The notes below the pieces were generated by a model. It was not told the DNA's origin. It worked only from the letters and a program-made list of their open reading frames with translations, and searched no databases. A DNA stretch of 64,000 nucleotides from a virus: positions 1 to 64,000 of the IMG/VR virus record IMGVR_UViG_3300046821_000076; one strand, 5' to 3'. Both the position numbers and the translations under genes were made by a program. Each line of letters opens with the position of its first letter. Positions within the stretch are counted from its first letter, which is position 1. This document shows, piece by piece, positions 2,438 to 33,343 of this stretch.

Positions 2438-3130
2438 TTACTGAGGTAAAAAACTACAATCAACCACAGTGAACTCATAAGTATTTAATGTACTATCTGT
2501 AAGACTGGTAGTTGTTGCAGGGGTGTCTGCAGCATTTGTTGTTGTATATGCAGTTTTAAAATCTACTCTAGCATATCCATTACTTAACGCAGTAAAAAAT
2601 AGACATCGTTGATAAAAATTAGGGGACTGGAGTCCACTGCACTGTAACTGCCTAGATACACAAAAACCCACTCTTTTACCATAATTTTTTTCTAATATAT
2701 TTACTACAGTATTACTATCAATTTGAGCACTACTGAGAGTGCCTTTAATATGGTCTAATACTTTAAAGGGTAGGAATGTACTGTCATAAACCAGTTCACT
2801 ATTTGCATTCCATACCCTAAATCCATATTCCATGTTTGAGGGGGTAGGAATAAAACCAAAGACATGTATGTTACATGCTCGATTTACTTTTACAGTTTTC
2901 TTAAAACCGCCTATAGTAGTATATGAATCTAAGAATGGGGTAGCACGTGTAGAGTCAAACATTAGCGGTTCGATAACATACCATTTAAAGTCTTCAATCT
3001 CTACTTCTGCCCAACCAGCAGTTAAATCGGTAATATAGATGGTGCTTATATATCCAATATTTCTATAATTAGAATCTATTTGCACGCTGCCTTGGGTATT
3101 CCAAATTTTAATACCATATTCGTCTGTCAT
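2438..3130 (-). CDS. Tail-tip accessory protein
   Basis: 230 aa with two internal YG(I/F)(K/R)(I/V)WN..(Q/Y)DS repeats, typical of genes following J-like tail proteins. Confidence 0.6.
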   Translation of the reverse strand: MTDEYGIKIWNTQGSVQIDSNYRNIGYISTIYITDLTAGWAEVEIEDFKWYVIEPLMFDSTRATPFLDSYTTIGGFKKTVKVNRACNIHVFGFIPTPSNMEYGFRVWNANSELVYDSTFLPFKVLDHIKGTLSSAQIDSNTVVNILEKNYGKRVGFCVSRQLQCSGLQSPNFYQRCLFFTALSNGYARVDFKTAYTTTNAADTPATTTSLTDSTLNTYEFTVVDCSFLPQ

Positions 3131-3552
3131 TAGTAAATACCTACCATTACTGTTACCGGAACATTGTTATATCTTGAGTAAATATCAGCCTGAGACCACC
3201 CAGGGGAGAATATGGTATAAAGAATCCACATCTTAGTAGGGCTTAACATTGTCCAATGTACTGCTTGACGTATTCCTGCCATCTGCTGTGTACCTGATGC
3301 AGTATACTTACCATTATGGTCATGGTACATAACATAAGGAGTACCTTGTAAGAAGGCATCCGATTCAACTACTAGATGGCGCGTAGCATTATTAAAATTG
3401 TTAAGTGACATATTGGGCCAGTTAGGTCCAGTAGATACATCATTCGGAAAAGCTATAGTACCTGACCAAATAATACTAGTGATCTTATCAGAAGAATCTA
3501 GGAGCAACTTATTATTTGCATCCCAGACTTTAATACCGTAAATATCTGCCAT
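3130..3552 (-). CDS. Tail-tip accessory protein sharing the N-terminal motif of 2438..3130
   Basis: YGIKVWDANNKLLLDS; TAATG coupling on both sides. Confidence 0.6.
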   Translation of the reverse strand: MADIYGIKVWDANNKLLLDSSDKITSIIWSGTIAFPNDVSTGPNWPNMSLNNFNNATRHLVVESDAFLQGTPYVMYHDHNGKYTASGTQQMAGIRQAVHWTMLSPTKMWILYTIFSPGWSQADIYSRYNNVPVTVMVGIY

Positions 3553-17521: not shown

Positions 17522-20500
17522 TTACAGCATGGACGTTGCCATATTCATTGTGATTGGCTCATCAATCACTGAAGGGAATGCAAGTGCACCTTCACGGAAT
17601 GGGATACCCATCTGATTCCAGATAATAGGATCAATACCATAAGGAATATCTGTACCGTTATGCATTACTAATGCTTGTAGTAAAGCTCTTGCAGGCTTAC
17701 GTTCTAAGAGTCTAAACAGTGCTTTCTGAATACGTAAGTTGTATTTAGAGAACATGATAATACCCATGTCGTTTAAGTACTGCATACCTTTACTTGTAGG
17801 CATGTCATAGTTAATGAAGGTATCACTGGCTATTTGAATAGCTGCGTCATGGTCTAAACGTTCTTTCTTCGGTGCGTTGTTACGGTAGTAGTTATACATT
17901 ACGTACTTCGCAGTGAAGTCAGACAACTGAGTAGTGTTGTTCAAGAACTGATACAGAGGGGTTGTTGGAGAAACCAATAACCAATCTGCTGTTGAGCGTA
18001 CTCCCGCAGGAATCTTACTCAGTTGTTTTTCAAACTTACGTTCTAAAGCAGATTTGAAGCTAAACGCATCATCTTGGTTTAGAGCTACATCGTCTACAAT
18101 ACTAGGCATCATACCTTCATTGATAAACTCTGCTAGAGGATTGTTAGCAATAGCTTGCTCTAAACGTAACACCTCTTGCTCTAACTCCTTTTTATTACCC
18201 AAGCCTGTATACAACATCTGACGCTTAGCTGTAAGTAAAGCATTGTCTTTACGATGCTGCATAGCTGCACGTAATGCGTAAACAGTATCCTTTACGATAG
18301 CTGTCATACTAATACCATGAGCTTGCAGTAAGAAGGCATTAGAGATGATATTCATAGATAGTGTACGTAGGTTACGAATAACGATGAAGTTCTTTGTAAG
18401 AGCTACTGCTGACTGCATAGCACGTTCAGTACGAGCACCATATACACGAGCGTTATTTCCAAACACTGCTTTAAACAATGCTACGTATACTTTCTCGTAA
18501 AGATTACGTTCACTTCTTGGTTTATCAAAACCTTGAGTAGCTGAATACTTTTGGTATCCAAATACAGGAAGTAATACTTCTTTAGGTACATACAGTACAC
18601 TCTTACCAGTAACCTCTCGAACATAGTCTCTAGTATCTTGAGGCAATAAGTCCCAGAGCTTAGCTAACTCTTTATCACGTACGTTAAACCCTACAGCGAT
18701 AAAGCTATCAGGATGACTATCATAGTTTTCTTGCTTCTCTTTAACTAGAGCATCAACAACCATACGGTTATTAAATGGAACATTCATCTTGTTAAAGTTA
18801 GTAGCAGCGTACTGACCTAGGATATTAGCAAAGTCATTATCTCTACCTAACAAGTTATCACGCTCATAGCTAGACATCTCATAACGATATCCAATGACAT
18901 TACCATCCAGATCATACTTAGGAATCAACGCACTAGTACCATTACCTTTGTAAGGGTCATAGCCTGTATTAGCATGTAAGCTACGTTGCTTAGCTTGAGA
19001 TGCTTTAAGAACAACTGATACATCTACGTCAGCATCTGTACCACGAGGATTCTTACCAAACATTTCTAACGTACCTGAGATCATACGAGTTAAACCAGCA
19101 TCTTCAGATAAGAACATACGTACCTTGTCACCACGTGCTAATGGGTTAGGCTCAAGTACTTTAACCTCACGGAAGAATTGATCTTTAAAGTTCTTAGCTT
19201 CCTCATCAGTCTTAGCAAAGCGAATCTCATGGTTAGGGTTAGTAATCTCAGGGATATAACCTTTAGTCATGGATAACGGGTTATCTTTAAATAACTCATC
19301 TCGTGCTTCATCTGCTAAACCTTTATGGAATTTAAGGATAGCTTCAATACCATTCACATCTCCACGAGAAAGCTCTGTATCCATTACTGAACTGATCTCT
19401 GCTTTGATATCTGTAGGTGTATAGCGAATAGCGTATAACGAAACCAATGAATCAATAGCAGCTACCAAGTCAGGGTCTACATCTTTAAGTGCCATCTTAT
19501 TAGCAGTACATGCACCCATAGCAATCAACGTAGCATTTAAAGCCAAGTCATTATTCTCAGGTCCTAGGTTAGTTACCATATATCGAGCAAGGTCTTTACT
19601 GCGAGAGATTAGATGTGTACCTCGAGTATCCAATGACATCACTACACTAGCTTGCTGACTGATCACACTATTTAAGTACTCAGGGTTTTGGTACATACGA
19701 TGAATCTGCTTAGGAGTGAAAGCTCCAAGAAGTGCTGAAACGTCTGCAACCATTAAATAAGTTAGTGATTCACGAGTCTTACGTTTAAGCTTCTTACCTC
19801 CATTTTTAAACGTAGAGAGTACATTTTTAATTGTGTACTCTTTCTCTAACTCTTTAGCCTGAGAAGTCTTCTTAACATGTCGCATCATCTTTTCAATAAT
19901 GTTTTTGAAAGGAGTGTTTTCAGCCATCTCATTAACAAGCTCTCCCCAGAATTCTAACTTACCTTCTGAATTGTTAAGAAGAGTCTCACGAGTATTATTT
20001 AAGTTATCCATCAGAGTACCTTCAATAGCTGATGTAGCTACGTTACGCACTAAGGTTACTTCAGGTACTGTAGTACTATTCATTGCTGGAATCTTACTAG
20101 CAACTTTACGTCTAGCCTTTATTACTGCATCGTCAATCTTATTCTCTACTTTAGAGATACGATCATTAATCTTGTTAACAATACCTCCACGATATTTTAA
20201 ATCCACTTTAGCTACAGACTTTAAAGCAGACTTCACATACTCAGACACTGGAGCACCAGACTTAACGCCTGAGATAAGCTGAGCAAGGAACTCAATAGCT
20301 TTCATTACATAAGCTTGTACCTTCTCATTAATGTCAGCATCCTTACTAACTTTATTACCTGACTCTGTTTTCACATTCGCAAGTAAAGCATTAATTTCTG
20401 CACTGCCTGAAACCATACTAGAGAATCTAGCTAAGTGATCATTCTCTTGAGTAATCTTAAACAAGTGATCCCACTTAGATTGAGCTATAGCTTTCTCTGC

Positions 20501-23500
20501 AGTAGTAGCCTTGGACCAATCACCTTTAAATAAGTCCTTTGGCTTAATCTTACTGCGCGCTTGGCTGAATGCCTTATCTAACTCAGCATAACTAATAGAT
20601 AGTCCACGTTCTTTAGCTACAGCTTTCGTAGCTGCGTATACTGCCTCTACTGCAAAGCGTTCTAAAGGCTGTAGGATATATCCACTCAATACTGCCTTAT
20701 CAGAAGTGACTGTTGTATTAGTTGCAATAGCATCCTGCCATACAGATTCAGGATCATTACTTAAACCAATACTATCAAACAGACCTGTATCCATACGATC
20801 AAAGATAGGTAGAGCAAACTCATCCATAGTCTCTTTAAGCTGAGCATCAAAGTTTGTACCTGTACCTTGTAACTGCTCCATTAGATCAGTAAGGTTCATA
20901 GCTTTAACAGATTGCTGAGCTTTACGTAATGAAGCTCCTAGTATGCTGCTAGGAACATTAGCTAAGCTATATGCTTTGGTGTTCTCCGCTCCTTCGCTTA
21001 ATGTTAGTACGCTTCCAATTAAAGCCTCTAATCCAGTGATCTCACCTGACTCTAACTCAACAGGTTTTAAACCAAAAGCTTGAGAGATAAGCTTAGAGGT
21101 CGCTTTAACGAAGTCTTCTAGTCCACGTTTGCGTGTAGCTTTAACTTTCATCTGATTAAGTAGCATTGCTACTTCAGGACGTTCAAAGACAGTAGATACA
21201 AACTCATGATTATTCTTAATTGCATAAGCTACCCCGTCTGTTGGAGTAATGCCTTGATTAGCTAAGAACTTCACAAACTGTTCACGTAATGCAGTAATCT
21301 CTTTAGCTGCAGGAGTATCATTCTTCTCCAGTGCTAGGAAAGTAACTGCGTGCATCAATTCATGGATAGCAATAGCAGGAATAAAGTTACCGTTAGCATC
21401 TGCAGTTAGATAGATAACTGGCTTACCATCAACATTAGAATTAAACCAACCATATCTACCCTTACTCCAGTGCTCCAAAGCTCTAGGATCGGTAGCGTGT
21501 AATACACGTACTTCTAACTGCTCAGGTAAAGCTTGCTTAACTAGATTGTACATCTGCCCACTAAGTACAGTAGCTAGGTTAGGATTCACATCCTTAGTTT
21601 TGTTAGTGTCATGTGCAATAGCAAAGTTGAGTACTTTGATGTTTATAGGAGTGTCTTTAGGTACATTGCTTAGATAGAGCTGAGTTGTATTCTTATCTAC
21701 ACCAGTCTCAATCTTTTCTTCTGCAACCTTAGTTACTTCTGCAACTGGAGCATCTTGATAAATACCTTTTGCACCTACCACACCAAAGATACTATCTAAC
21801 TGTACAGCTTGTGGAACTAACTGTTTAATAGCCTCTTCACGTTTAGCTCTAACCTCTACTAGCTTCTCTTCAATACGTTTGATATCTGATTCAACAATTT
21901 TATACTCACCACCTTCTAAACCATATTGGTTTACATATGCGTACTCTAAGAGTGTATTAAGTTTTGCAATGTCTCGATCAAAGGCCGCATCCAACAATAA
22001 AGCTACTGCATCTCCAATAGAACTATTAGGAGCAAGATTACCTTTAGCGTCATACACATCATTAGCGTGAGATTTATTAATACTCTGAGCTGCCTTTTGC
22101 AATTCTGCTTTAGATGCTAGTTGTGCTTTAGAATCTAAACCAAGAAAAGCAACTAATGGTTTAAGAGACCCAGTAATCATGTTGGAGTTGAAATCTACTT
22201 CGATAAGAGCATCAGTAGTTACTTTGTTTAGCTCTTTAGCAAACTGACGTCCTTTACCTACAATAGCTGTTAAAGCATCATGGATGTTCATAGTTACCCA
22301 ATTACCTAATTGAGTATGGGCAATACCTGCATCGGTAGAGTGAACACCTTTAGGATTATTTGCTACACCTGCTGGAACAATCTCATACGTCTTAGCTTGT
22401 TGGGTTACATGGTATGTGTACTTAGATGAAGAGCTTGGTTTGAAACTTCCATCTTCGTTATTTAAACCAAGACTATTAACCTTACGTGCACCGAAGATAT
22501 AGAACTCTGATTTATCCCGAGCTTGATCGCTACGCTTAGATGCAATCTTAACTAGAGGTAGTGAAGACTCTTCTGTATTCGTACTCTTACCTGCTAGGTA
22601 TGACTTGAATGTAGGCATGTCTTTACGTAGATCAACAAGAATCTGTTCATGAGCTTCTTTAGACAGACCTTCTACCTTCTTCACATCTTCAGGTAATGCT
22701 TCAGTACGCTTAGCTACTTCTGCATCATATACCGGTTTAAATAAACCCACAGCTAGCTGTCCTGCAGAAGTAATGTCATCACGAGCTTTGATGTACTCAG
22801 GGTAAGCTTCTTTAATAAACTCAGATACCACATGCATTAGCGGTTCTTCTAAAGCTTTACTGATAGCCTTATCTTGTTGAGGAGTTAAAACCAAGTTAAG
22901 AAGATCAGCATCATCTTTAACGTGTTCGTCAGCTTTCAAACCTCCACGTTTTAACAAGTAGTTTAATTTTTCAATAAACAACTTACGTGAAACACTATCT
23001 ACAGATTCTGAACTGTACTTTTCTAAACCAGAAAGAATACTGTCTTTAATGTCTCCAATAATCCCTGCTGCTGTAGCTGGATTGCCAGAAGAGAAGTTAA
23101 TCACTGTAGTAATTGTCTTAGTACCTTTACGCTCTAGCATCTTAGGATGTAGTACTTGAACTGCTTGAAGTACTTCACGAGTAATACTCTCAGCAGGTAC
23201 ATCTGAATTCTTAGCGTAAGCTACACGTCCTGCTTTAGCAGGAGCTAATGCAATAGCATTACGTAGATGAGTAATGTTGTACTCATACATATCAGCATTA
23301 CCTAAGTCCTTATACTGAGGGACGTTAGTAATACCGTCAGATTCTTTATACATACCACCTGCTCCATACATACCAGCAGCAAGAGTATTCATAAGTACTT
23401 GGGTTAAGAACGGACCATTAGTTACACCATCCACTTCTAAAGAGATATCCACTTCAAACGCTGTATCTTTATTTGAAGTAAAAGCATTCTTGAAAGAAAT

Positions 23501-26500
23501 TAGATTTACTAACGCTTTAAGAGACTGGGCTTTCATACCTGCTTTATTAACAGCAGCTACTACTTTCTCTACCTGCTCTACAGGAACATTATCACCATTG
23601 ATCATCTTCTCTAGGATAATCAATACTTCTGTACCTGTACCATCACCTCGTAATGCCCACTCTAAATATTGTGGGGCATAGTTAAGGATTTGAGTTTTAT
23701 CAGCAGTAGTTGATACACCTTCAGGCATTAAATCTTCAGTAAGTAAAGCTACTGTCTGAATGAATTCACCTAATGGAGTGATTGTATTGGTTTGACTATC
23801 TAATAGAGCTTCAGTATTACCAGTCTTAAAGAATGCTTTGATACCATCACGTTCTACAGAAGTCATAGGGAACTTAACACGATGCTCTTTAAGCTCTACT
23901 AACCCACGGTGTAACTTACTAGCTACAGGATTAAGATCATTAGCCATGTGAGAACGTTGTTGGTTCTGTACTTCCTGTTCTAGATAGAAATCGTTATCTA
24001 AACCAAAACGAGATTTAGCTAGAGTATCTACACTTGCTTCATAGATTTGAATCTCACGTTCAATGCTTTGGTTATTAGCTTTAATACCATCACGCTTCAT
24101 TGCTTGCTTTTTGTTAATCTCTGCTTCTGTAAGCTTACCGTACATACGATCACGTAAGGCTTTCAATGCATCAGTCTCACCTAAAGCAGTGTGTAATTTG
24201 TTTAGAGCCTTATTGATACCCCACTTATACGTATGAGCATTACTTAGAGCTTCTACCTGTGCAGAAGGTATCTGAGTACCTAAACGATCTGTAGTCTTTT
24301 GAGTAACTAGCTTCTCTGCTTTAGGTTTAGATGTACGAATTGGTTTAACTCGCGGAGCTACACCAAATGCTTTAGTAAGAACAGACTCACTACCTTTAGT
24401 TTCATTAAGTACTTTAGCTGACAATCCTGTAGGTTCAAAAGTTTTAGTGCTGTGAGGCAAGTTAATGAAGGTGTATTGATTGATAGCTTTTAACTCTGCT
24501 TCATCAATATCCTGATTATTATGTTCTTTGATGCTTCGTACAATTTCACGTACTGCTGCAGGCTCAATAGTATTCTCCTCTACATAACCTGCCATTGTCA
24601 TACGATGTACTGCAAGCTGACCCAGAGCTACAGCTAACTTACTCTTACGAGTATCAGCCACATCTGACGTAAACTTGAAACCTAGCATATCAATAACTTT
24701 ATTACCGATAGTCTCTGCAGCAGTTGGTTTAGCTGAGCCTACAGCTTTAAGCATGTCATAGATATGATATGGAACAGTTAGATCATTACCTTCAATACCG
24801 AATGCTTTAGGTAAGTTATCCATACGCATTAAAGTACTACCATTCTCCATAATCCAAGAGAATGCTGCGATAGTAATAGCGTCTTCAACTTGAGGTAGTA
24901 ACTGGTCTACTTTCGCATCATTAGCTGCAGTTACTTGAGCATCAAGATCAACAAGATAGTTAGCAAAGTTATTAAACGTCTCTAACCCAGCATCTTCAAG
25001 GAATGTGGTATTTGAATAGATACCTGTAGTAATGTTAGAGAAATTGTAGAACATTCCTCCTAACACTTTCATTGCTTCGTGCTGTTGATCAGTATGGTTA
25101 GGTACTGTCTTTTCTAAGTGGTCCTTAAGTATTTCTGTATACGCAGTATTGTATCCAGATTTAACTTCTTTACTACGTAAACGAGCAGTTACTGACTTAG
25201 GCATATCACGTAACAAAGTAGGTACGATGTTCACAGCTTCACGTACTAAATCATGTTCAGCTAATGGTAAATCTTTATTAGCTTCACGTAATGCTTGAGC
25301 TTCTTTGTTAGCTGCTACTGTAGTACCAAAGTCAGGAACATATTCAGTAGTGGTATCTAAACCTCCAAACATATCTTTAAGCTCATTCTCGTTCAGAGGT
25401 ATGTCGTAGATTTCGTATGGAGTCTCTGAAGTACTAACAAAAGACTCATCAATATTACCTTCGTACTTAGGTTCGATACCCATAGCTGTTAGAGCATTTA
25501 ATGTTGCACGAGTTTCAATTGCTACTTTATCATCAGTGAGTAAAGATTCACCGTTACTGTAGTAAACAGCACGATCATTATTGTCTATGTGAGATTGCTC
25601 ATGACGAAGTAAAAACTCATTAAGTTTTCTAGGTGTATTTAGCTGCTGCTTTAAATAATCCAAAGAATATCCGTATACACCTAACTTAGCTAATACCAGT
25701 TTCTTCTGTTGAGAAGCTTGTTTAGTACGTACAGGAGCATCTTCTTGTACAACCCCTCCGAAGTAATCCCAGAACTCTTTACTGTTTTCAGCATCACGAG
25801 GATTTAACGTAATATTATTATTTTTATCTGTTCTAGCCATAGTAGGAATTGTTGAATCTACTATGTACTCGATACCATCAAACTTACGTACTTCTTGAGT
25901 AGGTAAATTATCATCAGGGGTTTCTTTCTTAATTGGTTTTTTATCTCCTCGAATTGCAGCGAGAAGAGCATCAACTTCAGGAGTTGATCCTTCAAAAGTA
26001 GCAGGAACATAAGCAGCTGTAACCCTTGGATCACTCCCCATTGTAGCTAAGATACTGTTCTGAACTTGAGTAAACAGGCTGTGCTTATCTCGATTGTTTT
26101 TCCAACTAGCATATGGATTTATGTGGAAGTTATCTCCAACTTTAGTCCACCCATCTACAGAAGTATCAAATACAAGTGTGTCTGACTTATTCGGCTTGTC
26201 AGTTAAAATTTTAATATTACGGTCTTTAATAAACGCTTTAGCACGTTCAATTACTAACGACTCGTATGAACGATCAGGGTGTACAATTTTAGCTAGACTC
26301 TCGAGTGTTAACTGCTTTTGCTTTTCCAACTCTTTAAATTGCACTGTTGTCAGACGTAAGAAAGGAGCATGGCTTTCTTCCTTGTTAGCTATACCTTTAG
26401 TCGTAAACTTAACAGTAAGGTCTAAGTCAAAAGCTATGCCATCAAGTACTTGATCAAGCATAATTTTTATAGTGGTAGGGTCTGTTTGTTTCAGTACAAG

Positions 26501-29500
26501 CCCATCATCCATCAAATAAGTTATGCTATCTTCTACTTTATGGTAATCAACAACAGACTTTCCATTAGGCGTTAGCACTGAAGTTTTAGGATCACGTATA
26601 AAGTACTTGTTATACGTTTGAGGATTAGTAGCGTCTATTTCAAATAATTCACCTTTATCTAACCACTCTTTTATTGTGGCATCAGGATTATCTGTAGTTA
26701 CACCATTGAGCTCTATTACCTTACTTGACGAAATATAAGAACCATCATCTTGTTTATTAAACTTAATAGTTAGAGGTTTCAATTCACGGTATTGTGGGGA
26801 AGTTAAACCAGTAAACTGAATGTCTCCTTTATCGTTCACCTTACGTACCATCTTAGGAGTGTTTACTACAGGAGTAGTATCAGCATTAGCATTCAGGTTA
26901 CTTAATTCTCCTTGGTTCTCTACATACGCCTGTTCTTTTAGTTGAGCTGTCTGATCGAGGAGCTTCTCATACACGTTGGTAACTTCATTAGGCATACCTA
27001 CAGTCTTGCCTATCAATTGAACCAAACGTTTGAACATAGAGGTCTTAGCTTTAGACCTATCTACAGGTACAGAGATCTTTTTAAGTTCCTGAATTGCACC
27101 ATACTCTGTAGTACCTACAGTTATGAACTCTGCATTATTGATCAGCATATACTCTAGACGCGAAAGTGTACGTGGATCCTCTTTCTCAAGACGTTCACGA
27201 TTTTGCTCAATATGATCAACAAGTCTAGGTTTGAGTACGTTGTTAATCTCATCCTGAATTTCAGATGAACTATCCAAGTTTTGCATAGTAACTGTATGGT
27301 GGATCTCATGAGCGAAAGCTTCTTGAGGGCTACTTGTTCTAGATATAAGTTCTCCACCATCACGTAGATCAATATAGATCATTGGGATATCGCCTAACTC
27401 AGGGATACGTATGTGGAAAGTTGTATGTCCATTCGAGTATCGCTCAGAATTAGCCAATACTTTTACGTAATCAAAAGGAATACTCTCTACGTCTGTGAAG
27501 ACGTGAATGCCTGCATTGCCATCCGCAGCCTCTACAAGAAAATCATATAACTCATCTAGGTAATTTAAGTCCCCAGTATTCTCCTTCTTACCCTTAATCT
27601 TAAATATAAGATCTTTAAGCTCAGGATCATGTAAGCTAAAACTTGTATTAAGGAGTTCAGTTGGTACGGTCAGATACTCGAGTTTTGTAGTCTCTTCTGA
27701 ATCCTCCTCCTCCCCCTTCTTAGGAGTATTTACTACAGGAGCGTTACTTTTTTTCTTTGGTTTCCACTCGCCAGGGGATACTTCTTCATAACCTTTAAGA
27801 GCAAGCTCTGCTGCTACCTCACGTACACCCACGTTGTCAGTACGTTTACGGTTATGTGCATCGTCAGTAATAATAATAGCACCTGCTTCAATAGCTTTAT
27901 GCAACTCTGCTTTATCAAAAGGAATACGATCTTCACGATTACTCTCAGCAGAAACAAACACTACATCATCAGAAGTATATGTACCTGTATTAGCAGACTC
28001 TCCAAAATCTTTTGCATATTGAGCAGTAGAAGATTGAGCAGAACCTTGACCAATAAACTTAGTAGCCTTGTCTGCTTTAGCTTGATGTTTAGCAAGGTAA
28101 GATGACTTACCTGTAAGAACAACACCTTTAGTCTCTGGGGTTGTTCCAGAGGGTTGAGTTGTAGTAGGTACAACAGAACCCACACCTGAGTCATCAAACT
28201 GAATCTCAGTATTAGATAAGTCTGGTTTAATACTATCTAGATCCACAGGCTCTAACTGTAAAGACGATTCATCAATACCTTCCCAGATATTCTCATCAGG
28301 ATTTACTGGAGTATTTTGAGGAGTACTCTTACCTTTTGCTTGGTTTGCTTGTGCTTGTTGCTGTCTTCCTTCATCAGCTAACTGTTGTGCTTCTAGATCA
28401 ACACCGTTGCTCGTATCTAGGCTATCAGCCATTTGCTGCATACGTTCCATAGGATCGCTAGTATCATTCGTAGAACGAGCAGCTAGAGCATCTACAGAAG
28501 CCTTAACTTTATTGATTAAGTTAGACTCCATAGAAATAGCTGATACTAGGCTTTCTGAGTGTCCATACCCCCCTGGATTGTACTTAATATTTAACGCACC
28601 ATTCTCACGAGTATTCTCAATTGTGTCACCAGTATTGATAAACCATTTATTCTCGCCTGCAACACGAGCTACTTGTACAACAGTACCTGGAGCAGCTTTA
28701 GCAGCTTCCCATGCTTGCGTTATTGTATCTGCTTTAGACTGATGACTCTTAGCAAAGCGATCTAACATTTTAGAAGTAACTTCTTGCATACGAGTATTAC
28801 CGGATGCTACTGCCTTACTCATATCATCCATATAAGACATGATTGGTTTAGAGTAGTCTGAACCATTAATAATATCTTTACTTACTCGTTTGATAGACTG
28901 AGTATCATCATATGCTTGACGTGCTTCAGACAGGGTACGAAGTACTTCACGATCAGCTTCAGCATACTTAACATCTTTAGATGCTTTAGCTAACTCTGCT
29001 GCAGTATATGAAGAAGGTGCTCCAAGAATCTTAGATGGAATAGTAGTAGGGTTATTAGATAGATCATCTGCTAGAGCTTCAGAGTTATTACGAATCTCAG
29101 TAGCTTTGTTTAATTGGTTTATTAAACCAGAGTATTCTTTCTTAACTCGATCTGCATATTCAGGATCGTTAGCATTAGCATCAATCTCTGCCATTACAGC
29201 ATCTGCGTTAGCAAGTGCTTCTTCTAACTGAGCTACTTGAGGGTTAGAAGGATCAGTATCTTTAGCACTTTGTACTTGTGCTCGGAACTCTTCTACACCT
29301 GTACGTGTACCTTCTACGTCTCCAAGAGATTCAATGATGTTCTCTAAGATATCTAAACGACTAGCAGAAGCTCGTAATACCTCTTCCTGTTTAGCTTTAA
29401 TCTCTTGCTTAGCTTCAGGGGTTTCAGCTTGAGATGCTTCCTGTGTCATACGTACAGTAGCCGCTTTAGGATTAAAGTTAGGAGAGCTAGGAGATGCAAA

Positions 29501-30982
29501 GTCTTCTGTAGGAATTGATTGATCAATCTCAGGACTATCTTCTTTAGCCTTATTCAGATTACGTTCTGCAAGTGCTGCTTTAGCTTGAAGCCCTGTACCT
29601 AAGACTGCATTAGCTGTAGCTGCCGGAGTACCGATAGCTCCTGTAATAGCTGCACCCATTGTAAAGGCTTCACCCATAGCAGCAGAATCAAGAGTGTTGT
29701 TTAGAGAACCCCAGTTAACTTCAATCTGTTGCTGTACTGCTTCTGTTACACCCTCTGCTAATGCTGATCTACCTAACTGCCCTGCAGATTGGACCACAGC
29801 TGCATTACGTATTTTATCAATAGCAGTCTTTTCAATAGCACTAGGAACTGAGCTAGATTTTAAACCAAGAGAACTGCTAAGAGATTTACCTTTTAAAACT
29901 CCTGCAGCGATAACTGATTCTGCATAGTTAGCTGCAGTATACACAGCAGTCATTCCTAGGATACCTAGAGACTCTCCAGCAGTAGGTGCTCGTAATTCAC
30001 GATCAACAAACGCATCATAAGAATCGTTTTGTACTCGTGTAGCATCTACAACTATAGCAGGCATACGGGTATATGGTAATAAATACGGAGTCATGGCTGC
30101 AGCTTCTTCTAGAAGATATGCAGGATTTTCACTTAATGCATTTGCGGACTCTTTAGCAGATTTAGCAAACGTACCTAAATGTTTAGTTGCCCAACCAAAG
30201 TAATCACCTTGATCATAAGCATCACGAGCTTCACGTTGAGCTAGTGCAGTCTCTTTTGGAGAAGTACCATTGTATTTCTTATGAGCTTGATATGCTTTCT
30301 CTCCAGTATGGTCATACCAGTTACGTGCATTAAAAGAACCTGCAATACCTTTCTCACGATCACCTGTTACTCGCTTTCCATAATCTTCTGCAGCATTGCT
30401 CCAATTAAGACGTTGCTTAGCCTCAGTCTCAGAACCGTCTGGATTATATAGTAAAGCTTGTTCTTCAGGCGTTAATTGGTTTTGTTGCAAACGGTTTGTT
30501 AAGTAAGCTTTACGTTCAGTAGCCTCGCGTAAATCTAAATAACCCCCTAAAGCCACAGCCTTAGCAGGATCGTCTAATACTGCTAACTCTTCTTGATACT
30601 TAGGATTATTCTTTTGATCTTGTAGTTTATAGAAAGCTGTTTCAGCATTCTTATCTAAACCAATAGTATTAGCAGCACCTATGCCATTAACAATAGCTCC
30701 ACTAGCTTGTTCAAATAATTCACCAAACGCTCCTGCAGTTCTACGCCCTACGTTTAGAGCTTTTGAACCTATATTACGATTATCAAATTGATCACCGTAG
30801 TCTGCGTACTGTTGCAGTAATTCAGTAGCATTTACTCGTGGAGCATAGTCTTGGGTATTAACCTGTGAGCGTGCTCCAATGGTTTCCTCATACGGAGTTA
30901 CCTTAGGTTGCTGCTTCTTACTTAACTCCTGTGCAATCCTAGCAAATGCGTTTTGAACTTGATCATCTTTATATCCTGCCAT
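17522..30982 (-). CDS. Virion-encapsidated RNA polymerase (N4 gp50-like), 4486 aa
   Basis: Motif A EVDGVTNGP (~23411-23437), motif B R-x3-K-x7-F, motif C NIHDA (~22274-22289). Only one Cys seen by eye. Heads the late cluster. Confidence 0.95.
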   Translation of the reverse strand: MAGYKDDQVQNAFARIAQELSKKQQPKVTPYEETIGARSQVNTQDYAPRVNATELLQQYADYGDQFDNRNIGSKALNVGRRTAGAFGELFEQASGAIVNGIGAANTIGLDKNAETAFYKLQDQKNNPKYQEELAVLDDPAKAVALGGYLDLREATERKAYLTNRLQQNQLTPEEQALLYNPDGSETEAKQRLNWSNAAEDYGKRVTGDREKGIAGSFNARNWYDHTGEKAYQAHKKYNGTSPKETALAQREARDAYDQGDYFGWATKHLGTFAKSAKESANALSENPAYLLEEAAAMTPYLLPYTRMPAIVVDATRVQNDSYDAFVDRELRAPTAGESLGILGMTAVYTAANYAESVIAAGVLKGKSLSSSLGLKSSSVPSAIEKTAIDKIRNAAVVQSAGQLGRSALAEGVTEAVQQQIEVNWGSLNNTLDSAAMGEAFTMGAAITGAIGTPAATANAVLGTGLQAKAALAERNLNKAKEDSPEIDQSIPTEDFASPSSPNFNPKAATVRMTQEASQAETPEAKQEIKAKQEEVLRASASRLDILENIIESLGDVEGTRTGVEEFRAQVQSAKDTDPSNPQVAQLEEALANADAVMAEIDANANDPEYADRVKKEYSGLINQLNKATEIRNNSEALADDLSNNPTTIPSKILGAPSSYTAAELAKASKDVKYAEADREVLRTLSEARQAYDDTQSIKRVSKDIINGSDYSKPIMSYMDDMSKAVASGNTRMQEVTSKMLDRFAKSHQSKADTITQAWEAAKAAPGTVVQVARVAGENKWFINTGDTIENTRENGALNIKYNPGGYGHSESLVSAISMESNLINKVKASVDALAARSTNDTSDPMERMQQMADSLDTSNGVDLEAQQLADEGRQQQAQANQAKGKSTPQNTPVNPDENIWEGIDESSLQLEPVDLDSIKPDLSNTEIQFDDSGVGSVVPTTTQPSGTTPETKGVVLTGKSSYLAKHQAKADKATKFIGQGSAQSSTAQYAKDFGESANTGTYTSDDVVFVSAESNREDRIPFDKAELHKAIEAGAIIITDDAHNRKRTDNVGVREVAAELALKGYEEVSPGEWKPKKKSNAPVVNTPKKGEEEDSEETTKLEYLTVPTELLNTSFSLHDPELKDLIFKIKGKKENTGDLNYLDELYDFLVEAADGNAGIHVFTDVESIPFDYVKVLANSERYSNGHTTFHIRIPELGDIPMIYIDLRDGGELISRTSSPQEAFAHEIHHTVTMQNLDSSSEIQDEINNVLKPRLVDHIEQNRERLEKEDPRTLSRLEYMLINNAEFITVGTTEYGAIQELKKISVPVDRSKAKTSMFKRLVQLIGKTVGMPNEVTNVYEKLLDQTAQLKEQAYVENQGELSNLNANADTTPVVNTPKMVRKVNDKGDIQFTGLTSPQYRELKPLTIKFNKQDDGSYISSSKVIELNGVTTDNPDATIKEWLDKGELFEIDATNPQTYNKYFIRDPKTSVLTPNGKSVVDYHKVEDSITYLMDDGLVLKQTDPTTIKIMLDQVLDGIAFDLDLTVKFTTKGIANKEESHAPFLRLTTVQFKELEKQKQLTLESLAKIVHPDRSYESLVIERAKAFIKDRNIKILTDKPNKSDTLVFDTSVDGWTKVGDNFHINPYASWKNNRDKHSLFTQVQNSILATMGSDPRVTAAYVPATFEGSTPEVDALLAAIRGDKKPIKKETPDDNLPTQEVRKFDGIEYIVDSTIPTMARTDKNNNITLNPRDAENSKEFWDYFGGVVQEDAPVRTKQASQQKKLVLAKLGVYGYSLDYLKQQLNTPRKLNEFLLRHEQSHIDNNDRAVYYSNGESLLTDDKVAIETRATLNALTAMGIEPKYEGNIDESFVSTSETPYEIYDIPLNENELKDMFGGLDTTTEYVPDFGTTVAANKEAQALREANKDLPLAEHDLVREAVNIVPTLLRDMPKSVTARLRSKEVKSGYNTAYTEILKDHLEKTVPNHTDQQHEAMKVLGGMFYNFSNITTGIYSNTTFLEDAGLETFNNFANYLVDLDAQVTAANDAKVDQLLPQVEDAITIAAFSWIMENGSTLMRMDNLPKAFGIEGNDLTVPYHIYDMLKAVGSAKPTAAETIGNKVIDMLGFKFTSDVADTRKSKLAVALGQLAVHRMTMAGYVEENTIEPAAVREIVRSIKEHNNQDIDEAELKAINQYTFINLPHSTKTFEPTGLSAKVLNETKGSESVLTKAFGVAPRVKPIRTSKPKAEKLVTQKTTDRLGTQIPSAQVEALSNAHTYKWGINKALNKLHTALGETDALKALRDRMYGKLTEAEINKKQAMKRDGIKANNQSIEREIQIYEASVDTLAKSRFGLDNDFYLEQEVQNQQRSHMANDLNPVASKLHRGLVELKEHRVKFPMTSVERDGIKAFFKTGNTEALLDSQTNTITPLGEFIQTVALLTEDLMPEGVSTTADKTQILNYAPQYLEWALRGDGTGTEVLIILEKMINGDNVPVEQVEKVVAAVNKAGMKAQSLKALVNLISFKNAFTSNKDTAFEVDISLEVDGVTNGPFLTQVLMNTLAAGMYGAGGMYKESDGITNVPQYKDLGNADMYEYNITHLRNAIALAPAKAGRVAYAKNSDVPAESITREVLQAVQVLHPKMLERKGTKTITTVINFSSGNPATAAGIIGDIKDSILSGLEKYSSESVDSVSRKLFIEKLNYLLKRGGLKADEHVKDDADLLNLVLTPQQDKAISKALEEPLMHVVSEFIKEAYPEYIKARDDITSAGQLAVGLFKPVYDAEVAKRTEALPEDVKKVEGLSKEAHEQILVDLRKDMPTFKSYLAGKSTNTEESSLPLVKIASKRSDQARDKSEFYIFGARKVNSLGLNNEDGSFKPSSSSKYTYHVTQQAKTYEIVPAGVANNPKGVHSTDAGIAHTQLGNWVTMNIHDALTAIVGKGRQFAKELNKVTTDALIEVDFNSNMITGSLKPLVAFLGLDSKAQLASKAELQKAAQSINKSHANDVYDAKGNLAPNSSIGDAVALLLDAAFDRDIAKLNTLLEYAYVNQYGLEGGEYKIVESDIKRIEEKLVEVRAKREEAIKQLVPQAVQLDSIFGVVGAKGIYQDAPVAEVTKVAEEKIETGVDKNTTQLYLSNVPKDTPINIKVLNFAIAHDTNKTKDVNPNLATVLSGQMYNLVKQALPEQLEVRVLHATDPRALEHWSKGRYGWFNSNVDGKPVIYLTADANGNFIPAIAIHELMHAVTFLALEKNDTPAAKEITALREQFVKFLANQGITPTDGVAYAIKNNHEFVSTVFERPEVAMLLNQMKVKATRKRGLEDFVKATSKLISQAFGLKPVELESGEITGLEALIGSVLTLSEGAENTKAYSLANVPSSILGASLRKAQQSVKAMNLTDLMEQLQGTGTNFDAQLKETMDEFALPIFDRMDTGLFDSIGLSNDPESVWQDAIATNTTVTSDKAVLSGYILQPLERFAVEAVYAATKAVAKERGLSISYAELDKAFSQARSKIKPKDLFKGDWSKATTAEKAIAQSKWDHLFKITQENDHLARFSSMVSGSAEINALLANVKTESGNKVSKDADINEKVQAYVMKAIEFLAQLISGVKSGAPVSEYVKSALKSVAKVDLKYRGGIVNKINDRISKVENKIDDAVIKARRKVASKIPAMNSTTVPEVTLVRNVATSAIEGTLMDNLNNTRETLLNNSEGKLEFWGELVNEMAENTPFKNIIEKMMRHVKKTSQAKELEKEYTIKNVLSTFKNGGKKLKRKTRESLTYLMVADVSALLGAFTPKQIHRMYQNPEYLNSVISQQASVVMSLDTRGTHLISRSKDLARYMVTNLGPENNDLALNATLIAMGACTANKMALKDVDPDLVAAIDSLVSLYAIRYTPTDIKAEISSVMDTELSRGDVNGIEAILKFHKGLADEARDELFKDNPLSMTKGYIPEITNPNHEIRFAKTDEEAKNFKDQFFREVKVLEPNPLARGDKVRMFLSEDAGLTRMISGTLEMFGKNPRGTDADVDVSVVLKASQAKQRSLHANTGYDPYKGNGTSALIPKYDLDGNVIGYRYEMSSYERDNLLGRDNDFANILGQYAATNFNKMNVPFNNRMVVDALVKEKQENYDSHPDSFIAVGFNVRDKELAKLWDLLPQDTRDYVREVTGKSVLYVPKEVLLPVFGYQKYSATQGFDKPRSERNLYEKVYVALFKAVFGNNARVYGARTERAMQSAVALTKNFIVIRNLRTLSMNIISNAFLLQAHGISMTAIVKDTVYALRAAMQHRKDNALLTAKRQMLYTGLGNKKELEQEVLRLEQAIANNPLAEFINEGMMPSIVDDVALNQDDAFSFKSALERKFEKQLSKIPAGVRSTADWLLVSPTTPLYQFLNNTTQLSDFTAKYVMYNYYRNNAPKKERLDHDAAIQIASDTFINYDMPTSKGMQYLNDMGIIMFSKYNLRIQKALFRLLERKPARALLQALVMHNGTDIPYGIDPIIWNQMGIPFREGALAFPSVIDEPITMNMATSML
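26851..27741. repeat. 24-bp direct repeat pair inside vRNAP
   Basis: TCTTAGGAGT(G/A)TTTACTACAGGAG at 26851-26874 and 27718-27741; 23/24 identical, 867 bp apart, both encoding PVVNTPK. Confidence 0.85.
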
Positions 30983-31087: not shown

Positions 31088-33343
31088 TTATTTAGTATTG
31101 AAACGTTTTCTCATCTCCTCATTACCTGCTTTGATAGCGTTTGTGTAGGTAGCCTCAAACTTCTTTTGTTGATCGCTTTTTTGCTTAGCTTTTTCAATAC
31201 GTTCATTAGCTAGTTTAAGACGTTCCTTAGCTATACGTTGCTTTTCACGCTCTGCAGCGGCTATACGTATTTTTTCACGTGCTGCAAGTTGACTAGCTTT
31301 CTTAGCTTCTTTATCAGCCTTCTCCTTAGCCTCTATAGCTTTAAGACGTTCAGTAGCTTCTTTTTGCGCTTGTCTAATTAAGTCTCGATTTTTATCCCTT
31401 ACTTTACTATCTGGAGTACCGAATAAATTTCCAGGTATAACATTATCAACCTTACCTCGCTTAACATAAAAATCCACAATGGCTTGCTTAGTAGGTGTAG
31501 GTGTAGGGTTCTTAGCCTGCACAGGAGTAGTAGAGGTGGGGACTGAGGTTTTAGTAGGCGTAGTCTTAGTAGCTGCAGGTGTACCTTTACCTTTACTAGC
31601 TGGAGGTGGAGTTGTAGCAGCAGCTTTATCTACCTTCTTATCAAGAGCTTCTTGAACTTTTACAGTAGGCTTACCATAAAGAGATTGGTAACGAGCAGGA
31701 TCAATATGCAGTAAAGCTTCTTTAGCAGATATGGATACACCCTCAGCTTCAAACTCTTGTTGAATCTTCTGAACATAGGTATTACTAGGATGGGAAGCTT
31801 TAGCTACATGCTTCTTACGTTTAGCATCAATACTAATTTCCCCTTTGATAAGGTTATCAATACTCTTCTTTAAACCAGCAGCAGAGTTGTAAACTTCAAA
31901 AAACCCTCCTGGCTGAGACTGCCAAGCTTTAGCCCTGTTATATACATTGGTAATACCCTCTGCAGATAACCCTGCAAGTTGTGGGTTAGCTTGCATAGCC
32001 TTAGCAATATCGAAAGCATCTTGAGTAACTTTAGAACCTTCCTCCTTGGCTGTAAGCCCTGCAAGAACATTACCTACATTAACAGGCTGATCTTTGAGAG
32101 CTAAGCCCTCGTTGTACTTGAGCATAGCATCTTGGTATTCACCTCGAATCTTCTGCTGTACCTTACGATCAATACCTGCCAATGGAACATTTGCTGGAGT
32201 GTTACCTGCTACCCCAGACCCTCCATTAGAATATTCAGCCATTGCCTTGTTCACACGAGGTACATAGTCACGTGTCTCTTTAGGCAAATAAGAAAGCCAA
32301 TTACCTCCTGATTTTTTCGCTTTCTTAACTGCCTGCTCAACATTACCTCCCCCAGCATTAAATGCAGCAGTTGCTTGGTCCTCAGTAAATCCATGTTGTT
32401 TCTGCACACGTGATCTATATTCCATACCCCATCTGATTTGTTCTTCAGGAGTAGAGTTTTTAAGATCAATAGGAGGCATACCGTATCCAGGGTCTGCCGC
32501 AGTCGCAGGCATAATCTGAATAATACCTTGAGCACCTGCAGGAGATACCGCATTAGGATTACCTTTACTTTCAGTATGAATCATACCTGCTGCTAAAGGT
32601 CCAAACACACTAGCGTACCTAGCAATAGCAGCTCCTCCTCCACCTCCAGTAGTATATTCTGTACCATCAGGAGCTACCCGTACACTGCCAGCTCCTGAAT
32701 CTTGATCTGCTTTATAGAGCACTTCGCCCCTTCTCAACGCACTTTCTTGCTCTGCAAGCGTAGCCGTACGGTTGTACTGATCAGCATCTTGGTTTAGCTT
32801 TTGTAACTCCCAATAGTTTTTATTGGTAAAGTCACGAGCATTAGTTAAGTACTGACCAACTTTAGTTGAAATATCTGTGATATCTACACCTGTATCAGCT
32901 ATAGCTTGAATTTGTGCAAGCTCCTCTGGTGTAGCATCTAAAGCCGCTAACTGTTTCCCATAGATTGCAGCTACTTGAGGACGTGCAGCTATGTTAGCCT
33001 TCTTATCCTTGAAATCCATTTCAGTAGATTGACGTTGCATAAGTGTTGCAGGACGTTCATCCATAGCAGTACGTACAGCATCCATGTCGTAGCCTGATCC
33101 CCAACGTTGTTGCATTGCAGCAATATTTGCTTGAGCAATTGCTAACTCTTCAGGATTCTTTGCTTGGTTTAAAGCAGTGAGCATGTCATTAGTATTCTGC
33201 TTCTTAAGATTATCTTGATAACCTTTGTAAGCAGTACCTATTTGCTCTACTCCTGCTACTGATTGAGCTTGAGCCTTTTGAATAGCATCTAAGTATTTAG
33301 ATGTATCAATAGGGTCCATATTCTCCCACGTTAATTGACTCAT
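31088..33343 (-). CDS. Internal virion/ejection protein with lytic transglycosylase (SLT) domain (N4 gp51 position)
   Basis: IHTESKGNPNAVSPAGAQGIIQIMPATA...AAFNAGGG...ETRDYVPRV. Confidence 0.85.
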   Translation of the reverse strand: MSQLTWENMDPIDTSKYLDAIQKAQAQSVAGVEQIGTAYKGYQDNLKKQNTNDMLTALNQAKNPEELAIAQANIAAMQQRWGSGYDMDAVRTAMDERPATLMQRQSTEMDFKDKKANIAARPQVAAIYGKQLAALDATPEELAQIQAIADTGVDITDISTKVGQYLTNARDFTNKNYWELQKLNQDADQYNRTATLAEQESALRRGEVLYKADQDSGAGSVRVAPDGTEYTTGGGGGAAIARYASVFGPLAAGMIHTESKGNPNAVSPAGAQGIIQIMPATAADPGYGMPPIDLKNSTPEEQIRWGMEYRSRVQKQHGFTEDQATAAFNAGGGNVEQAVKKAKKSGGNWLSYLPKETRDYVPRVNKAMAEYSNGGSGVAGNTPANVPLAGIDRKVQQKIRGEYQDAMLKYNEGLALKDQPVNVGNVLAGLTAKEEGSKVTQDAFDIAKAMQANPQLAGLSAEGITNVYNRAKAWQSQPGGFFEVYNSAAGLKKSIDNLIKGEISIDAKRKKHVAKASHPSNTYVQKIQQEFEAEGVSISAKEALLHIDPARYQSLYGKPTVKVQEALDKKVDKAAATTPPPASKGKGTPAATKTTPTKTSVPTSTTPVQAKNPTPTPTKQAIVDFYVKRGKVDNVIPGNLFGTPDSKVRDKNRDLIRQAQKEATERLKAIEAKEKADKEAKKASQLAAREKIRIAAAEREKQRIAKERLKLANERIEKAKQKSDQQKKFEATYTNAIKAGNEEMRKRFNTK

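Follow-up and report, generated by a model that had tools for sequence, protein, structure and literature searches.

What do some 900 residues of folded domains do inside a virion RNA polymerase (vRNAP), at the place where the enzyme of coliphage N4 has a flexible linker? The question is raised by a giant gene on the IMG/VR virus record IMGVR_UViG_3300046821_000076, of which positions 1 to 64,000, called the window below, were analysed; all nucleotide positions are those of this stretch of 64,000 nucleotides (nt). A preliminary description had presented the gene product as an enlarged vRNAP with about 900 amino acids (aa) of extra modules, and had suggested that it doubles as a carrier of effector or anti-defence domains. 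The reading favoured here, which is considered probable, is that of a recombination-shuffled cassette of four independent domains, placed in the linker that runs from the N-terminal domain (NTD) to the polymerase domain (Pol) of an N4-type vRNAP and carried along with the injected protein. That the cassette is accessory and swappable is, for its part, very likely. The narrower claim, that one or more of the four modules, once injected, has a host or defence target on which it acts, is given slightly less than an even chance.

A folded cassette in the place of linker 1

The gene is a single open reading frame (ORF), identified by the PHROG family phrog_2206, by the N4 vRNAP chains of the PDB and by an N4-like gene order:

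17522..30982, minus strand, vRNAP gene, single ORF of 4486 aa

The family phrog_2206 ('virion RNA polymerase') matches aa 1766-4482 of the ORF (E=0, 1257 bits), and the PDB chains of the N4 vRNAP match it with E 3e-36 to 3e-16. A tblastn search with the polymerase core finds 161 matching records among 50,697 phage records, 121 of them with a coverage of at least 80%, at 24-27% identity, and most of the rows listed are annotated as vRNAP. By homology, the ORF is thus classed as an N4-type, Schitoviridae-like virion RNA polymerase. The length comparison in the preliminary description is correct, since N4 gp50 has 3500 aa against 4486 aa here. BLASTP aligns aa 2472-2649 with N4 1510-1694, aa 3177-3299 with N4 2206-2332 and aa 3599-4469, the C-terminal 870 aa, with N4 2623-3471 (E 1.5e-31), with 21-29% identity in the aligned parts. 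The offsets of these segments, 962-979, indicate a surplus of about 970 aa rather than 900, all of it upstream of the polymerase core, where the extra sequence had been placed before.

Coliphage N4 gp50 consists of an N-terminal region, a flexible linker 1, the polymerase, a linker 2 and a C-terminal domain (CTD) with the HExxH-containing subdomain C1 (PMC13434306, PMC13492108), and the window protein has a similar layout. Linker 1 of N4 is described as about 100 low-complexity residues, 907-1006, between NTD and Pol (PMC13434306, PMC13492108). Unlike N4 gp50, which has this short linker and one HExxH, the window protein has about 900 aa of folded modules in the place of linker 1, with two more HExxH motifs. 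The cassette is flanked and followed by these parts:

28193..30982, minus strand, N-terminal region, aa 1-930, equivalent to the N4 NTD by position only
21743..25105, minus strand, polymerase core, approximately aa 1960-3080, from BLASTP to N4, tblastn and the alignment of the distant relative P0007, which starts at aa 1960
20963..21595, minus strand, conserved C1-type HExxH domain with HELMH at 21350-21364, from the BLASTP segment aa 3177-3299 and phrog_2206 positions 2042-2219

Family searches gave no match for aa 1-930, BLASTP and PHROG detected no homology of this region to the N4 NTD, and no strongly hydrophobic 19-aa window was found in it.

The cassette was modelled with AlphaFold2 in two stretches, aa 940-1372 and aa 1368-1860, each based on a small alignment in which the relatives had been trimmed; MAFFT misaligned the cassette when the relatives were entered at full length, and that alignment was not used. 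Residues ~949-1846 form four separately folding units, joined by linkers at predicted local distance difference test (pLDDT) values of 50 or below. The linker-separated modules of the preliminary description are therefore recovered in the four ranges given there:

27746..28138, minus strand, module A, aa 949-1079, alpha/beta, Rossmann-like, family unannotated; pLDDT at least 84, mostly above 90
27715..27741, minus strand, linker A/B, encoding APVVNTPKK, the second copy of a direct repeat of 27 nt found by repeat search; the peptide recurs at the borders of relatives
26888..27715, minus strand, module B1, aa 1090-1365, HExxH domain (HEIHH; Glu 1285 in NNAEF, 27125-27139), paralogue of C1
26848..26874, minus strand, linker B/C, encoding TPVVNTPKM, the first copy of this repeat of 27 nt, from the same repeat search
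25919..26851, minus strand, module C, aa 1378-1688, beta-rich in its first half and alpha/beta in its second, an orphan; pLDDT mostly 55-89
25445..25903, minus strand, module D, aa 1694-1846, small HExxH domain (HEQSH; Glu 1823 in IETRA, 25505-25519); pLDDT 78-93

The landmark motifs of module A, DVVFVSAE and GAIIITDD, start at aa 1006 and aa 1034. All three HExxH motifs reported for the protein are present: HEIHH at aa 1225-1229 (27296-27310), HEQSH at aa 1794-1798 (25589-25603) and HELMH at aa 3207-3211 (21350-21364). Shuffled versions of the protein contain 0.065 such motifs on average, and none of 2000 shuffles had three or more. HELMH does lie after the core, as the preliminary description had it, but it is not an extra domain: it aligns with N4 HELVH at 2228, the one HExxH of N4 gp50, and so represents the known, conserved C1 motif. 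Subdomain C1 spans residues 2124-2375 of N4 and contains this HExxH (PMC13434306); it corresponds to the 'MPTase' of Iyer et al. (2017), who unified it with zincins (PMC5512222).

The cassette, aa 940-1860, has no cysteine in 921 residues. The 18 other ORFs of at least 300 aa in the window contain 72 cysteines in 8885 aa (0.81%), a rate from which about 7.5 would be expected. The view that the rest of the protein is cysteine-free as well needs a small correction, as one cysteine occurs at aa 3825; N4 gp50, with none, is similarly depleted. The complete absence of cysteine from the cassette, while stand-alone homologues of module A do contain it, supports an adaptation of the inserted sequence to the ejection route. 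As for the single cysteine of the window protein, 15 of its 19 close relatives have no cysteine at all.

Module content among near-identical polymerases

Relatives were collected by a word-indexed protein search with aa 900-1880, which returned 40 proteins including the query, and were compared by local alignments and a module-by-module BLAST matrix. Twenty of them, the window protein included, form a close set whose Pol-CTD parts are 88-94% identical; the relatives are predicted proteins from metagenomes. In the N-terminal region (aa 1-930), too, 17 of the 19 close relatives show 84-89% identity, the exceptions being P0002 and P0016. The cassette position in the close set is occupied as follows:

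Module A, present in 3 of 20 proteins
Module B1, present in 2 of 20
Module B2, another HExxH type (HEASH) with ~25% identity to B1, present in 7 of 20
Module C, present in 3 of 20
Module D, present in 13 of 20
Module G, present in 3 of 20 (P0037, P0009, P0008)
Pfam DUF7831, present in 1 of 20 (P0040, at the cassette position)

Either D or B2 stands immediately before the conserved part in all 20 proteins, and the two never occur together. Four modules are present in the window protein alone, which is also the longest of the set, and P0005 carries B1 at the same place. Across the relatives the cassette varies from ~245 to 921 aa with the ORF intact. Judged from these sequences, the modules are accessory and not invariant structural parts of related vRNAPs, the circumstance that the preliminary description had named as speaking against its proposal.

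Outside the close set, the distant vRNAP P0031 has module A and Pfam LPD3 before its polymerase. When the 50,697 phage records were searched with the region by megablast, no match was obtained, and tblastn with aa 845-1876 against the same records found four, all through module A; sequenced isolates yielded no B1, C or D. No relatives were confirmed by IMG/VR pattern scans with the cassette and with P0043; a shorter-protein search and a near search with module A gave one match each. Module G, found at the cassette position in the three relatives named above, measures about 125 aa and has an RGxGxAA-type motif. A resemblance of this motif to the acetyl-CoA motif of GNAT proteins is not claimed, as Pfam gave no match at E <=1.

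Borders, linker repeat and probable recombination

The borders of the modules are marked by a short sequence. Of 22 proteins inspected, 18 have a peptide of the type PQQKKKSTxPVVNTPKK(K)EE where modules join. In the window the PVVNTPKK-type peptide is restricted to the A/B and B/C junctions, two of the four internal borders, where it is encoded by the 27-nt direct repeat at 26848-26874 and 27715-27741. The two copies are identical in 25 of 27 nt, use the same codons, are spaced by 867 nt and bracket B1 exactly. Relatives without module A retain its last residues, 'EEVSSGEGKPQQKKK', a remnant that is expected after deletion by recombination.

Public contigs were compared with the window over 25300-28300, a break being defined as a match of at least 90% followed by unlike sequence. 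The contigs of relatives, which come from wastewater runs and from a second contig in one possible source run, break at 25428 (three runs), 25915, 27705-27739 and 28154. In the protein, these points fall at aa 1851, 1689, 1081-1092 and 943, the borders of the modules. Stretches lacking contig coverage in runs X5 and X7 and one weak joint, 27733-28272 (side 26), were excluded from the evidence. Among the sequencing runs for the stretch, no RNA run is listed.

The HExxH modules and the possibility of self-processing

The preliminary description had called the HEIHH domain zincin-like; for B1 the link to zincins runs through its homology to C1, and for D it consists of weak structural matches. 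With hhalign, the nine B copies (B1 and B2), taken as a profile, align with a profile of 12 C1 domains, N4 gp50 included, at a probability of 97.6% and E 2.9e-12 over 122 columns starting at HExxH, which makes module B a paralogue of the conserved vRNAP HExxH domain. Pairwise BLASTP between B1 and the C1 domain of the same protein has E 0.002, and the sole PHROG signal among the modules is that of B1 with the C1 part of phrog_2206 (E 0.0039). All nine B copies retain the HExxH and, some 56 residues beyond its second His, Glu 1285, a putative third metal ligand. In the AlphaFold2 model HEIHH lies within the predicted helix 280-291, and the C-terminal helical half of B1, which starts at HEIHH, reaches pLDDT 84-97. 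Foldseek searches of the PDB with both models found nothing at E <=0.001. The BFVD rows for B1 are weak (best E 3.4e-3) and belong to internal core, crAss-like and polyvalent proteins, which is a hint only.

The best structural neighbours of module D are mostly minimal zincins, with weak Z values of at most 4.9; the proteins considered most comparable include minimal zincins of the IrrE/PprI, ImmA and CapP type, and also YbeY, Wss1/SPRTN and BlaR1. Comparison of D with B and of D with C1 by hhalign revealed no relation beyond the motif. All 10 aligned D copies, three of which belong to non-vRNAP proteins of 2663-5655 aa, retain the HExxH together with Glu 1823 ('IETRA'). Three of the 13 close carriers have lost the motif: P0011 has HEQSY, and P0015 and P0016 have HAQSR with a deletion of ~20 aa. 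The catalysis of D is therefore dispensable at least in those proteins. In the non-vRNAP protein P0039 (2663 aa), module D is followed directly, within aa 202-405, by a weak match to the circularly permuted YpsA SLOG family (E 5.6e-5, 23.4 bits against a curated cut-off of 26.2). The accessible text of the PhiM1 ejectosome paper (PMC11440229) makes no mention of a peptidase in chain 8vb2_A.

Such enzymes might be directed at the protein itself. According to this explanation, the extra zincin-like modules and C1 would cut the polyprotein at PVVNTPKK-type linkers after ejection and free the polymerase and the modules from a membrane-bound N-terminal region, and host proteins would not be the target. 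One short peptide recurs at several borders between modules, both in the window and in 18 of the 22 proteins inspected, which agrees with this explanation. So does the fact that all 20 close proteins have retained D or B2, a module of zincin type, right ahead of the polymerase; autoproteolysis by the MPTase domains of polyvalent proteins was proposed by Iyer et al. (PMC5512222). The near-identity of the two linker copies at the DNA level is nevertheless explained by recent recombination without selection for a cleavage site. The motif is moreover present at only half of the internal borders in the window, and D lacks HExxH in the three carriers mentioned. In addition, the N4 vRNAP is reported to be unprocessed in the virion (PMC5512222), and the recombinant protein is described without degradation (PMC13434306). 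Self-processing is thus regarded as unlikely.

Modules A and C and the possibility of inert spacers

Modules A, B1, C and D have no match in Pfam, NCBIfam or PADLOC, and a search of the whole genome revealed no second copy of any of them. Module A is defined by conserved polar motifs, KDQxKADKA, FIGxGSxxSST, DVVFVSAEGxR, ATxITD and YNVGERE, in sequences 43-79% identical to the window copy. It occurs in the 3 close proteins, in 6 distant vRNAP-like proteins, in 11 others without a detected vRNAP match and in stand-alone phage ORFs. Only 4 of the 50,697 phage records contain it. The stand-alone ORFs, of ~135 aa, were found in three Vibrio phages and lie just upstream of nrdA in the two inspected. 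In Vibrio phages Kuja (L002:2998-3408) and SUMAE (L003:2998-3402), the homologues are 40-41% identical to the window copy and keep all motifs; they contain cysteine (one and three residues), unlike the fused copies. Eight of the 11 large proteins with module A and no vRNAP match (P0019-P0023, P0025, P0029 and P0035; 2602-4430 aa) have no cysteine, like vRNAPs, and may represent another class of ejected polyvalent proteins.

The earlier guess that module A is SLOG-like found no support in any search. Searches of the ESM Atlas with A and with C gave no usable match, and PDB sequence-profile searches with the alignments A1 and A2 returned nothing below E 0.3. A Toprim-like reading of the SAEG and TD motifs of A was rejected; no Toprim model in Pfam matches. 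Besides the window, module C turned up only in P0002, P0003, the distant P0007 and a fragment, P0042. Family databases, the Atlas and the PDB gave no match for it, and phmmer with B1 and C together against 1.84 billion representatives returned a single match, the fragment P0042.

The window copy of A departs from the motifs of the other 14 aligned rows in three places, KDQ to KHQ, SAEG to SAES and YNVGER to DNVGVR (28076-28090, 27938-27952 and 27824-27838), whereas both stand-alone copies keep them. Judged from its sequence, this copy may be inactive, impaired or decayed. These changes, together with the decayed D of P0011, P0015 and P0016, could suggest that the modules are an inert spacer and the enzyme-like motifs relics. 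In N4 a long flexible linker occupies this site (PMC13434306, PMC13492108), and the large variation in cassette length that is tolerated with the ORF kept would suit a filler. Against this stands the conservation of the putative active sites, with HExxH and the downstream Glu kept in all nine B copies at ~25% identity and in all ten aligned D copies down to 36% identity. The polar motif set of A is strongly conserved too, at 43-79% identity and in stand-alone phage genes, and the domains are also present in unrelated giant proteins. A purely structural role of the cassette is therefore improbable.

Proposed delivery of the cassette and the weight of the evidence

An assembly artefact, in which related phages were joined at the repeated linker into a chimeric ORF, is suggested by the uncultivated virus genome, the 27-nt repeat at two borders and related strains that co-occur in the same runs (a second contig in run X1 diverges at 25428), but it is extremely improbable, since the full 3001 bases occur in single contigs with 0 differences and even depth in two runs from two studies (possibly the source of the record and thus not independent), the repeat is shorter than the 31-letter words of the contig index, and P0005 independently has B1 in the same place.

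For the favoured reading of a shuffled cassette carried with the injected protein, a mechanism may be outlined on the model of N4. The capsid would contain the whole protein, which would be ejected into the cell before the DNA, and the modules would consequently travel along with the polymerase. On arrival at the cytoplasmic side they would be folded or able to refold, and tethered close to the incoming DNA. There, B1 and D could act as metal-dependent hydrolases that cut host proteins or the polyprotein itself, with A and C as accessory cargo. The linker sequence would serve as the joint where modules are gained, lost and exchanged.

Several points weigh against this reading or limit it. Packaging and ejection of the window protein are presumed from the N4 homologue, which is packed and ejected, and the near-absence of cysteine is consistent with them. 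The N4 vRNAP is reported as packaged unprocessed (Iyer 2017, PMC5512222), and no degradation is described for the recombinant enzyme (PMC13434306). Within the cassette, the N-terminal half of B1 is modelled at pLDDT below 50, the window copy of A departs from its family motifs, and D has lost HExxH in 3 of 13 close carriers. The recombination history itself is read from protein mosaics and contig break points, not from aligned DNA.

A more far-reaching scenario joins several of these elements. The NTD-Pol linker would be a diversity hot spot, in which the ~27-nt PVVNTPKK linker acts both as recombination joint and as cut site for the zincins (B or D), so that, within seconds of the start of infection, strain-specific free effectors are released at the inner membrane. 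Module A would then represent a novel family of enzymes that act on nucleotides or on a signal derived from a nucleotide, widespread in cysteine-free giant phage proteins and standing alone beside nrdA in Vibrio phages. As a whole, this combination is improbable.

Relation to polyvalent proteins

In terms of sequence architecture, the window protein fits the polyvalent proteins as defined by Iyer et al. (2017), with four added modules besides Pol and C1, shuffled architectures and modules common to other giant proteins. Iyer, Burroughs, Anand, de Souza and Aravind (2017, J Bacteriol, PMC5512222) reported that some N4-like vRNAPs carry lysozyme, PBECR1 and ART domains, and read the polyvalent vRNAP as a carrier by which several activities are delivered just when the phage invades. 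The carrier reading of the preliminary description is consistent with the architecture found here; the idea itself had already been published in that work. The vRNAP of Roseovarius Plymouth podovirus 1, with its ART domain as cited in PMC5512222, is similar in that an accessory enzyme-type domain is fused to an N4-like vRNAP. It differs, by the description in that paper, in that no ART or other named effector domain was found in the window protein. Unlike the polyvalent vRNAPs of Iyer et al., the window protein has extra modules that match no Pfam model, including the models of polyvalent-protein domains.

The accessible part of PMC5512222 does not mention a hot spot among 88-94% identical polymerases, a border linker with a DNA repeat, or the alternation of D and B2. 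Likewise, no description of a module hot spot at linker 1, of the border linker and repeat, of the D-or-B2 alternation or of modules A, C and D was found in the literature as far as accessible, with the reservation that A or D may be among the unnamed LPDs of the supplementary alignments of Iyer et al. The principle has thus been known since 2017, and what is new here is the detail and the domains, not the principle.

Phage proteins injected with the DNA act before phage gene expression, which makes them prime candidates for countering host defences. The locus offers a clean natural experiment, in which near-identical polymerases differ only in the small domains of one flexible linker, with borders known to a few residues. 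Linker 1, recently defined structurally in N4, is identified as a permissive cargo site in vRNAPs. The main value of the locus lies in a precisely delimited set of new candidate injected domains, with at least three unannotated families (A, C and D) and two zincin types (B1/B2 and D).

Genome context

The record is an uncultivated virus genome of 72,334 bases, 93% complete according to CheckV. PHROG matches of 17 neighbouring ORFs give an N4-like gene order, with primase, Sak4 and SSB upstream of the vRNAP gene. Downstream, on the minus strand, the giant ORF, a gp51-like protein with lysozyme/transglycosylase-type matches, structural proteins, major capsid protein, portal and terminase follow, which places the vRNAP gene in the late, virion module beside ejection-protein-like genes, capsid and portal. 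The adjoining gene in the position of N4 gp51 (31088-33343, minus strand, 751 aa) has PHROG matches to internal virion proteins of the endolysin/transglycosylase type, and its product, too, contains no cysteine.

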